Below, in pieces: positions 1,085 to 50,592 of a DNA stretch of 64,000 bases; within the stretch, counting starts at the first letter, position 1, and each line of letters starts with the position of its first letter. The stretch is from Escherichia coli (GTDB lineage Bacteria; Pseudomonadota; Gammaproteobacteria; Enterobacterales; Enterobacteriaceae), in assembly GCF_030013595.1 (NCBI RefSeq), contig NZ_CP122768.1; one strand, written 5' to 3'. Position numbers and translations under genes: made by a program. Under the pieces are notes generated by a model. It was given only the letters and a program-made list of their open reading frames with translations. It was not told the origin of the DNA and did no database searches.

Positions 1085-1550
1085 GCGTAAAACGCCTTAT
1101 CCATCCTACGGTTCTGTGCTCGGGACCTGTAGGCCTGATAAGACGCGTCAGCGTCGCATCAGGCACTGAATGCCGGATGCGGCGTGAACGCCTTATCCGG
1201 CCTACGGTTCAGGGCTTGGATCTTGTAGGCCCGATAAGACGCGCCAGCGTCGCATCAGGCACTGAATGCCGGATGCGGCGTAAAACGCCTTATCCGGCCT
1301 ACGGTTCTGTGCTCGGGTCTTGTAGGCCTGATAAGACGCGCCAGCGTCGCATCAGGCACTGAATGCCGGATGCGGCGTGAACGCCTTATCCATCCTACGG
1401 TTCTGTGCTCGGGACCTGTAGGCCTGATAAGACGCGTCAGCGTCGCATCAGGCACTGAATGCCGGATGCGGCGTGAACGCCTTATCCGGCCTACGGTTCT
1501 GTGCTCGGGTCTTGTAGGCCTGATAAGACGCGGCCAGCGTCGCATCAGGC
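1085..1550. repeat. BIME/REP array: about five pairs of imperfect palindromic REP units with roughly 97-bp periodicity
   Basis: Repeated motifs gcctgataagacgcg..cagcgtcgcatcaggc and gccggatgcggcgtgaacgccttatccggcctacg seen directly; classic E. coli REP consensus. Confidence 0.85.
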
Positions 1551-8061: not shown

Positions 8062-8100
8062 CAGTGCTCTGGTAGCTGTAAAGCCAGGGGCGGTAGCGTG
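8062..8100 (+). promoter_or_regulatory. JUMPstart element with ops (ggcggtagcgtg), the RfaH-dependent antitermination site upstream of the O-antigen operon
   Basis: Sequence cagtgctctggtagctgtaaagccaggggcggtagcgtg read directly, 76 bp upstream of the rmlB start. Confidence 0.85.
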
Positions 8101-28357: not shown

Positions 28358-28404
28358 TTTCTTATTCCTCTTTAAACCTGTCTGAACCGTTATCAACCGC
28401 GCAA

Positions 28405-28439
28405 TAAAAAAGCCCCCGGAAGGTGATCTTCCGGGGGCT
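28405..28439 (-). terminator. his operon attenuator (leader terminator hairpin plus U-run)
   Basis: agcccccggaag-gtgat-cttccgggggct with A6 on the plus strand (U-run on the minus strand), between hisL and hisG. Confidence 0.85.
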
Positions 28440-28502
28440 TTCTCATGCGTTCATGCACCACTGGAAGATCTGAATGTCTTCCAGCACACATCGCCTGAAA
28501 GA

Positions 28503-28553
28503 CTAGTCAGGATGATGGTGATGATGGTGGTGTTTAAATTGAACGCGTGTCAT
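28503..28553 (-). CDS. hisL: his operon leader peptide MTRVQFKHHHHHHHPD
   Basis: Reverse complement of 28503-28553 encodes 16 aa with seven consecutive His codons. Confidence 0.95.
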   Translation of the reverse strand: MTRVQFKHHHHHHHPD

Positions 28554-31220: not shown

Positions 31221-31486
31221 AGAAAAATTATTATGACAAGCCTCTCATTCTCTTGTCATTTCCCCCCCATTTAGGCACAATGCGCCGCTGTCAAAAAATG
31301 ACTAAAAACCGACGTTTCATCAGCGTCGGTTATTTTTTGCTTCAAACCAATCATTCATACCAAGAGGCCGGGCTTCGTACCGGATAGATATTTACTAAAA
31401 ATCGACAGTTGTTGTCGCTGAGGAATCCAAAAAAATGGGGCAATTTTTTGCTTACGCGACGGTTATCACCGTAAAGGAGAATGACC

Positions 31487-50364: not shown

Positions 50365-50544
50365 CAGCTTTTCCTTAGATTGAGGGTGAATAAAAAAGCC
50401 GGTACCCACAAACGTGGATACCGGCAGGTAAAGGGTTACAGTGCCGGAGGTCCGGCTGTGGGAGTTTCTGAATTGTGGTTCTGTTGTTCCCTGAATGTCT
50501 TTCTGTACGTATCTGTGCATGTTACTGACAAAGGTTATTATTAG

Positions 50545-50592
50545 CTTATCGATCGATATAAACGATCGATAAAATAGATATCGATCGTTTTA
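50545..50592 (-). promoter_or_regulatory. agn43 (flu) phase-variation switch: three GATC Dam sites within the OxyR-binding region
   Basis: GATC at 50551-50554, 50564-50567 and 50583-50586, about 190-220 bp upstream of the flu ATG. Confidence 0.8.

Follow-up and report, generated by a model that had tools for sequence, protein, structure and literature searches.

What occupies the long spacer between wzxC and wcaK in the colanic acid (cps) operon of this Escherichia coli genome, and what might it do to the genes on either side? In the 64,000-nt stretch of DNA analysed here (the window), the 3′ part of wzxC, encoding the colanic acid flippase, is an open reading frame (ORF) on the + strand at 3-1046 that ends in a TGA stop codon at 1044-1046. 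The ORF of wcaK, encoding the colanic acid pyruvyl transferase, follows on the same strand at 1612-2892, with a GAGG Shine-Dalgarno motif at 1603-1606 and an ATG start codon at 1612-1614. E. coli strain CV839-06 is a 100% match to the window here, and its flanking genes are annotated wzxC and wcaK in RefSeq. The spacer from the TGA to the ATG measures 565 bp and is mostly tandem repeat.

The repeat is extragenic, lying downstream of the end of wzxC (1046) and upstream of the first base of wcaK (1612), and the reading frames that extend into it were rejected. A longer wcaK (463 aa, GTG start at 1501) is an artefact that runs into the array; the start at 1612 has the Shine-Dalgarno motif and agrees with RefSeq. 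Similarly, ORFs of 81-113 aa over the array on both strands are translations of the repeat and not genes, because two units measure 193 bp, a length not divisible by three, and because these ORFs are missing from array-free alleles.

Anatomy of the array

The initial annotation described roughly ten REP units in alternating orientation, with a periodicity of about 97 bp, between the two genes. Both the number and the period were borne out. Tandem Repeats Finder returned one array at 1074-1551 (period 96, 4.9 copies, 91% matches, score 796), and an exact-seed repeat finder gave start-to-start spacings of 96, 97, 96 and 97. Scanning by dynamic-programming edit distance with Y, Z1 and Z2 consensus strings placed ten REPs of alternating orientation in the same interval, that is, five units of 96/97 bp. 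These consensus strings are considered valid because they recovered the units of REP325, a K-12 array discussed below, at 1-3 edits. The initial annotation had the site right but began the array at 1085; the start is 1074, eleven bases earlier, so its first, degenerate REP had been clipped. Elsewhere in the 64-kb window the scan found no REP, nor did it find any in three shuffled versions of the window.

Each unit consists of a Y (35-36 nt), a 19-nt linker (GGTTCTGTGCTCGGGTCTT and variants) and an inverted Z2 (36-37 nt), and the 6-nt linker ACTGAA joins successive units. The five Y units are on the + strand, at 1074-1109 (REP 1), 1171-1205 (REP 3), 1267-1302 (REP 5), 1364-1398 (REP 7) and 1460-1494 (REP 9). 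The five Z2 units are on the − strand, at 1129-1164 (REP 2), 1225-1260 (REP 4), 1322-1357 (REP 6), 1418-1453 (REP 8) and 1514-1550 (REP 10). REPs 3, 6 and 9 match the consensus exactly, and eight of the ten differ from it by 0-2 edits. REP 7 has 2 edits and a weakened stem (−12.9 kcal/mol), and REP 1 has 6 edits and a stem of only −8.6 kcal/mol; both carry CCATCC in place of CCGGCC. The GTAG/CTAC foot of the REP hairpin is present throughout, each Y ending in CCTAC and each inverted Z2 starting with GTAGG.

The other eight hairpins are predicted to be strong as RNA (−16 to −22 kcal/mol). The predicted fold of the sense RNA reaches −298 kcal/mol, against −213 ± 7 kcal/mol for dinucleotide shuffles (z = −12.5). 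For the array, the predicted energies are −272 kcal/mol in the sense and −244 kcal/mol in the antisense orientation, both strands forming hairpins because each Y-Z2 pair is a near-palindrome.

Assignment to BIME-2 and the question of IHF

Two classes of REP-containing mosaic element have to be distinguished here. BIME-2 elements, defined by Bachellier and Gilson, combine Y and Z2 in tandem copies with short variable linkers, whereas BIME-1 elements are single copies of Y and Z1 separated by an L linker that carries an IHF site (both definitions as restated in Ton-Hoang et al. 2012, PMC3333891). The array is a BIME-2: it contains only Y and Z2, alternating in tandem, with short linkers and a copy number that varies between strains. 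We see no essential difference from that family, the pair of 6- and 19-nt linkers being one variant among several. With the IHF-binding elements (BIME-1, also RIB or RIP) it shares a Y-type REP and a location at the 3′ end of a gene, but these are single Y-Z1 pairs with a long L linker and an IHF site, none of which the array has.

A suggested role as an IHF binding site is for this reason inapplicable, since IHF binds the L linker of BIME-1 and the array linkers are only 6 and 19 nt long. The consensus scan found no Z1 unit anywhere in the window, and the IHF consensus WATCAANNNNTTR has no match in the spacer (1047-1611). It matches three times in the window, at 14.5, 19.0 and 61.7 kb, which is no excess over chance. 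The mention of gyrase in the initial annotation does fit BIME-2 as a class.

On neither strand was a sigma-70-like promoter or an intrinsic-terminator-like site (a G+C-rich hairpin followed by a T run) found between positions 700 and 2000, and the run that follows the array is of A, not T. Because the array lies inside the cps operon with no promoter- or terminator-like site of its own, it is presumably transcribed from the + strand, and only when the operon is on.

Identity with REP144 and variation in copy number

The array is, almost certainly, the REP144 element of K-12, here in a five-unit allele. REP144 is listed at 2118467-2118652 for the tandem gene pair wzxC/wcaK (supplement to bioRxiv 10.64898/2026.03.23.713779). 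In K-12 MG1655 the locus, the flanks, the Y/Z2 units, the 19- and 6-nt linkers and the orientation are identical to those of the array. The difference is in size and order: K-12 has two units, both found among those of the window array, in a 275-bp spacer, while the 565-bp spacer of the window holds five, their variants arranged as a mosaic. REP insertions and deletions, as well as a change in sequence similarity, have also been reported at this wcaK-wzxC spacer in O157 strains (Iguchi et al. 2011, PMC3158064). That report and the present survey share the spacer and the kind of REP presence/absence polymorphism; the former covered six strains with two or four REPs, and the latter, based on samples of 5,426 genomes, puts the range at 0-12 REPs. 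The element class, the locus and the polymorphism are therefore all already published.

Comparison of copy number across strains, the check that the initial annotation had proposed, gave a range from 0 to at least 6 units. The spacer is 71 bp with no unit in APEC O2:K1, 145 bp with a Y and a truncated Z2 in strain 03_3013, 179 bp with one unit in ERL05-0623, and 359 and 371 bp with three units in N96 and LFB1-1-1R. It reaches 467 bp with four units in OkiPb01704 and 661 bp with six units in Nissle 1917 and GN02323. MNCRE44 also has four units.

Allele frequencies were taken from 100 records, stepped evenly down the ranking of 5,473 matching records, with lengths read from match spans. Two units were commonest (26 records), followed by one unit (14), none (11), five (11, or about one in ten), four (7), three (5) and six (4), with a single record holding only a Y; these counts are rough, since they mirror which clones have been sequenced. 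Five further records had an unrelated 161-bp spacer, and the remaining 16 had no match at the locus or were uninformative. The spacer of 161 bp, found in some E. coli genomes, carries a boxC-like palindrome. The exact five-unit allele of the window (at least 99% identity) was found in only 20-32 records.

A probe of 84 nt, based on the array-free allele, found matches in 4,366 of the 5,426 genomes, the median genome having one. The same probe matched two separate places in 212 genomes, which we read as an insert too long for the two matches to be joined, of at least six units; the one such genome that was checked has a 660-bp spacer.

The locus is thus a variable-number tandem repeat in which whole 96/97-bp units are gained or lost between strains. 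The unit variants are shuffled as well: unit 4 of the window carries the three variants of unit 1, and units 5-6 of Nissle nearly repeat units 3-4, a pattern that unequal exchange or block duplication would produce. Since variants are shared by non-adjacent units, we infer that copy number changes either by unequal recombination or by the BIME amplification proposed for the REP-associated transposase.

An enclosing helix and a direct repeat at the borders

The sequences on either side of the array are predicted to pair with one another. The left arm (1038-1066, + strand), which includes the wzxC stop codon, forms a predicted duplex of −28.3 kcal/mol with the right arm (1556-1592, + strand). 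The same flank pairing was predicted in all ten alleles examined. Every array-bearing allele retains the capacity for this pairing, at −27 to −31 kcal/mol. Where the array is absent, the 84 nt spanning the junction are predicted to fold into a simple hairpin of −29.5 kcal/mol, with a perfect 13-bp stem (GTTGTTGTTTTCG / CGAAAACAACAAC) stacked on a 6-bp stem (GGTGAG / CTCACC) that takes in the wzxC stop codon. On this folding model, the array would sit in the loop of an older hairpin. The possibility that the flanking hairpin is itself a repeat family was rejected, since the median number of places matched by the 84-nt probe is one per genome; the flank occurs only once in the genome. In K-12 the left arm differs by T to C and the right arm by A to G, an apparently compensatory pair of changes.

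The array is also bounded by an 8-nt direct repeat on the + strand, with its left copy CGACAACG at 1064-1071 and its right copy CGGCAACG at 1557-1564, within the right arm of the helix. Array-free alleles keep a single copy, which is CGGCAACG in two of the genomes compared (L007 and L137) and the variant CGGCAATA in a third (L138), and the junction is identical in all three. Their flanks are as close to those of array-bearing alleles as the latter are to one another. The arrangement fits either a target duplication on insertion or a recurrent precise deletion through the repeat, as judged from the sequences.

The same junction in other genomes

A pattern scan of reference genomes outside E. 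coli found at least 73 species with wzxC directly upstream of wcaK. Among the species listed, the spacer has a median of 27 bp (quartiles 17 and 69 bp), and most of the long spacers among these matches (60-185 bp) hold a palindromic element. The family names that follow come from reading the sequences and are not database matches. G+C-rich palindromes resembling boxC occur at the junction in Pluralibacter, Kosakonia, several Enterobacter, Buttiauxella and Phytobacter, REP pairs in Citrobacter amalonaticus and two other genomes, and an ERIC-like element in strain RIT691.

In Escherichia sp. MOD1-EC7003, a REP array follows the wzc stop codon and leads directly into wcaK, the genes from wcaA through wzxC being missing. 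The last unit and the right flank of that array are those of the wzxC-wcaK array, so from its sequence the arrangement looks like a deletion between two REP sites.

Comparison with REP325 and the naRNA4 matches

REP325, located between yjdM and yjdN in K-12, is the array whose function has been tested experimentally. Like the array studied here, it is a multi-unit Y/Z2 BIME-2 between co-oriented genes of one operon and is matched by the same Rfam model. It has six units with 12- and 17-nt linkers and a period of 100 bp, compared with five units, 6- and 19-nt linkers and 96/97 bp here. Its orientation relative to transcription is the opposite: the sense RNA of REP325 reads inverted Y, 12 nt, Z2, 17 nt, whereas that of the present array reads Y and then inverted Z2.

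Deleting REP325 lowered expression of the upstream yjdM about 3-fold and raised that of the downstream yjdN about 10-fold, and the array yields a ladder of hairpin-ended RNAs (bioRxiv 10.64898/2026.03.23.713779). In the same preprint, bicyclomycin raised read-through only with the full 12-hairpin array and not with fragments of 2 or 4 hairpins. Nucleoid size was unchanged by REP325 deletion or by overexpression of REP325 RNA; no stable HU-RNA-DNA ternary complex was found, and REP-REP contacts were absent.

The Rfam family naRNA4 (RF02564), which was defined from REP325, has four matches in the array, at 1132-1202, 1228-1299, 1325-1395 and 1421-1491. They score 71.6-79.7 bits, against a gathering score of 59.5 bits, and lie on the − strand only, antisense to the operon; on the + (sense) strand the model reaches 42-55 bits, below the cut-off. 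REP325 has six matches (95-111 bits), and these are sense with respect to yjdM-yjdN. We therefore rejected naRNA4 as the identity of the array, and the matches are treated as a generic fit to a Y-linker-Z2 pair and not as evidence for an sRNA gene.

Possible effect on expression of the operon

The initial annotation suggested that such an array could stabilise mRNA, bind gyrase and uncouple the expression of upstream and downstream colanic acid genes. The first two roles are documented for the REP/BIME class (PMC3333891; Sutormin 2019, PMC6379681; Dar & Sorek 2018, PMC6061677), and uncoupling has a direct experimental precedent in REP325 (bioRxiv 10.64898/2026.03.23.713779). Genome-wide, tandem gene pairs that contain a REP show a higher upstream/downstream ratio (median log ratio 0.96 vs −0.09), and REPs are over-represented at the protected 3′ ends of Rho-dependent transcripts. 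Like REP325, the present locus is a multi-unit REP array between co-oriented genes within one operon.

By analogy, transcription of cps would place up to ten stable hairpins (−13 to −22 kcal/mol) in a 565-nt untranslated spacer. These could block 3′-to-5′ exonucleases and so protect the upstream message from wza to wzxC, and along the long untranslated stretch some of the read-through into wcaK, wcaL and wcaM could be lost, in part through Rho. To judge from REP325 and the genome-wide REP data, the array would then act as a modest dial whose strength scales with unit number; given the length dependence seen in REP325, the five-unit allele would be likelier to attenuate than the two-unit allele of K-12. 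As a whole, a five-unit REP144 allele with such a dial at the RNA level is our best explanation, one that we judge to have an even chance of being right. That the main consequence is a local effect on RNA, combining mRNA protection with partial attenuation of read-through, is a tentative reading to which we give slightly less than even weight.

Several observations count against such an effect or limit its size. In uninduced K-12, which has the two-unit allele, the preprint data give a DESeq2 baseMean of 36 for wzxC and 91 for wcaK, the reverse of the upstream bias predicted by uncoupling. Relative to transcription the array runs opposite to REP325, and its linkers differ; G slightly exceeds C on the sense strand (149 vs 139), unlike a Rho loading site. 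The operon works without the array, as about one in ten genomes is array-free and most other genera have a spacer of 14-30 bp. Completion of the colanic acid repeat unit, and so of the polymer, depends on wcaK, wcaL and wcaM, which would make strong polarity harmful. In addition, the cps operon, whose leader lies outside the window, is reported to carry a JUMPstart/ops element, in which case RfaH-modified polymerase would resist Rho. REPs within 15 nt of a stop codon are said, in work by Liang and Deutscher from 2015, to stall ribosomes; that case is inapplicable because the first REP starts 27 nt past the wzxC stop codon. One in-vitro Rho-binding peak was considered as locus evidence and set aside: it maps to the antisense strand and shares just 1 nt with REP144, which makes it uninformative for the sense transcript.

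The main rival to this RNA-level effect is that the array is neutral or selfish repeat DNA, tolerated at an untranslated junction, with a unit number that drifts by unequal recombination, slippage or REP-transposase activity and has no selected effect. Sizes from 0 to 6 units are all common, with no size standing out apart from clonal abundance, and strains differ as widely as APEC O2:K1 and Nissle do. Two of the ten REPs have decayed stems, the junction is short in most other genera, and the expected upstream bias is absent in uninduced K-12. However, eight of the ten REPs remain within 2 edits of the consensus, which points to recent homogenisation or constraint, and local changes in expression can be measured for REPs as a class. 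The junction is long (at least 60 bp) in about one in four of the species listed, mostly with a palindromic element, as would also fit selection for hairpins. We consider neutrality unlikely on this evidence, though well worth keeping in view. Recombination raises a different point, namely that the main significance of the array could be as a substrate, its homology shuffling the colanic acid/O-antigen region and allowing deletions between REP arrays. The similarity breakpoint at the wcaK-wzxC spacer of O157 strains (Iguchi 2011, PMC3158064) and the hybrid REP array that joins wzc to wcaK in MOD1-EC7003, with wcaA to wzxC missing, point this way. So do the discordant nearest neighbours of the left and right flanks in a small sample; in one genome (L004) the left flank is 99.0% identical to Nissle and the right flank 99.0% to K-12. 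Against this, the flanks compared are 400-bp segments differing by few SNPs, and in an existing recombination hot spot chance alone would be expected to put a breakpoint close to an intergenic indel. Recombination would also be a consequence of the repeat rather than its mechanism of action, and is compatible with all the other explanations; as the main significance of the array we find it very improbable.

A strong gyrase site, serving as a topological insulator that absorbs positive supercoils from transcription of the ~20-kb cps operon, would be in line with the enrichment of in vivo gyrase cleavage sites in BIME-2, where Y units are preferred and cleavage is transcription-independent (Sutormin 2019, PMC6379681), and the array has five Y units. 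In that study, however, cleavage occurs at only a subset of BIME-2 elements, and the part of its supplementary text available to us names neither wcaK nor wzxC. Array-free alleles are also common, and we regard this explanation as rather improbable. There is still less to recommend nucleoid-associated RNAs of the naRNA4 type that would condense the chromosome together with HU, a role first proposed for REP325, and we give this reading hardly any credence. The four Rfam matches (72-80 bits) do exceed the gathering score, but they are antisense to the operon, where no promoter-like site was found, while those of REP325 are sense; the sense-strand scores fall under the cut-off, and the family model in effect describes a generic Y-linker-Z2 pair. 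The 2026 preprint, moreover, found no change in nucleoid size on deletion or RNA overexpression, no stable HU-RNA-DNA ternary complex and no REP-REP contacts.

Significance of the locus

As a discovery the array matters little, being a correctly described and ordinary element. For annotation it calls for caution, given the spurious ORFs, the spurious upstream start of wcaK and the naRNA4 matches on a strand that is probably untranscribed. For strain typing near the O-antigen locus, its length also makes a convenient marker.

A bolder reading, which we consider quite improbable, joins two ideas: that unit number, which spans 0 to at least 6 and varies among closely related clones, is a heritable rheostat and that the junction is a selected landing pad for hairpin-forming repeats. 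The second idea draws on the unrelated families (REP, boxC-like and ERIC) at the junction in different genera, and on the position of the array in the loop of a presumed older hairpin, bounded by 8-nt repeats as if it were an inserted or excised cassette. Were the first true, unit number would govern the share of transcription passing into wcaK, wcaL and wcaM relative to that of wza through wzxC. It would thereby tune either pyruvylation and completion of the repeat unit of colanic acid, or how far dead-end lipid-linked intermediates accumulate.

Independently of that reading, alleles of 0 to 6 units in a well-understood inducible operon make up a natural allelic series. Such a series could be used to test the recently proposed "terminator plus stabiliser" model of REP function, and the dependence of that function on array length, in vivo.

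The array and its flanks

An 8-nt direct repeat bounds the wzxC-wcaK array, with CGACAACG at 1064-1071 and CGGCAACG at 1557-1564. A single copy was kept in three distinct array-free E. coli haplotypes (L007, L137 and L138, the last with a variant copy), and the junction was identical in all three. The repeat may be a target duplication or else a deletion microhomology. By RNA fold prediction, the array flanks (1038-1066 and 1556-1592) pair with each other at -28 kcal/mol, enclosing the wzxC stop codon, and in the array-free alleles they are predicted to fold into a simple hairpin with stems of 13 and 6 bp (-29.5 kcal/mol). These two predictions therefore place the array within the loop of a unique hairpin that is older than the array itself. 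The K-12 version of the flank hairpin carries one apparent compensatory change. An in-vitro Rho-binding peak has been reported in K-12 at NC_000913.3 2118651-2118749, on the strand antisense to wzxC (supplement of the 2026 preprint, bioRxiv 10.64898/2026.03.23.713779); it overlaps REP144, the two-unit K-12 form of the array, by 1 nt.

Related arrays and rearranged loci

A second five-unit Y/Z2 array, 83% similar to the wzxC-wcaK array, was found in the yjjW-yjjV spacer of strain W170 (L002 1487-2002), where it has linkers of 13 and 16 nt and sits between convergent genes. In Escherichia sp. MOD1-EC7003, a hybrid REP array directly follows the wzc stop codon, about 390 bp upstream of wcaK, which is the next gene; the final unit and right flank are those of the wzxC-wcaK array. 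The genes wcaA through wzxC appear to have been deleted in this strain, and an exchange between a pair of REP sites is the probable cause. E. coli strain IH5 has a truncated wcaK amid prophage, pilus and other gene fragments (NZ_CP168949.1 5084785-5088259), each of them annotated as a pseudogene, and the region looks scrambled or misassembled.

Other Rfam matches in the window were a JUMPstart element at 8062-8100 on the plus strand (60 bits), presumably preceding the O-antigen cluster that lies downstream of the colanic acid genes; the histidine operon leader (28404-28527, minus strand); the sRNA STnc240 (31266-31340, plus strand); and IS102 RNA (50385-50588, minus strand), indicating that an insertion sequence lies near 50 kb.

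The wzxC-wcaK junction in other genomes

In E. coli TUM13867, the spacer (L008 448-608) is 161 bp long and wholly different, a boxC-like G+C-rich palindrome replacing the REP array; among 100 E. coli records sampled, about 5 carried this spacer. Among the matches listed from 73 species of other Enterobacterales, the median spacer was 27 bp, and about a quarter of the species had spacers of 60-185 bp, most of which contain boxC-like palindromes, REP pairs or an ERIC-like element (families named by reading of the sequence). Different genera carry different palindromic elements here, and one operon junction has thus been occupied by unrelated repeat families.
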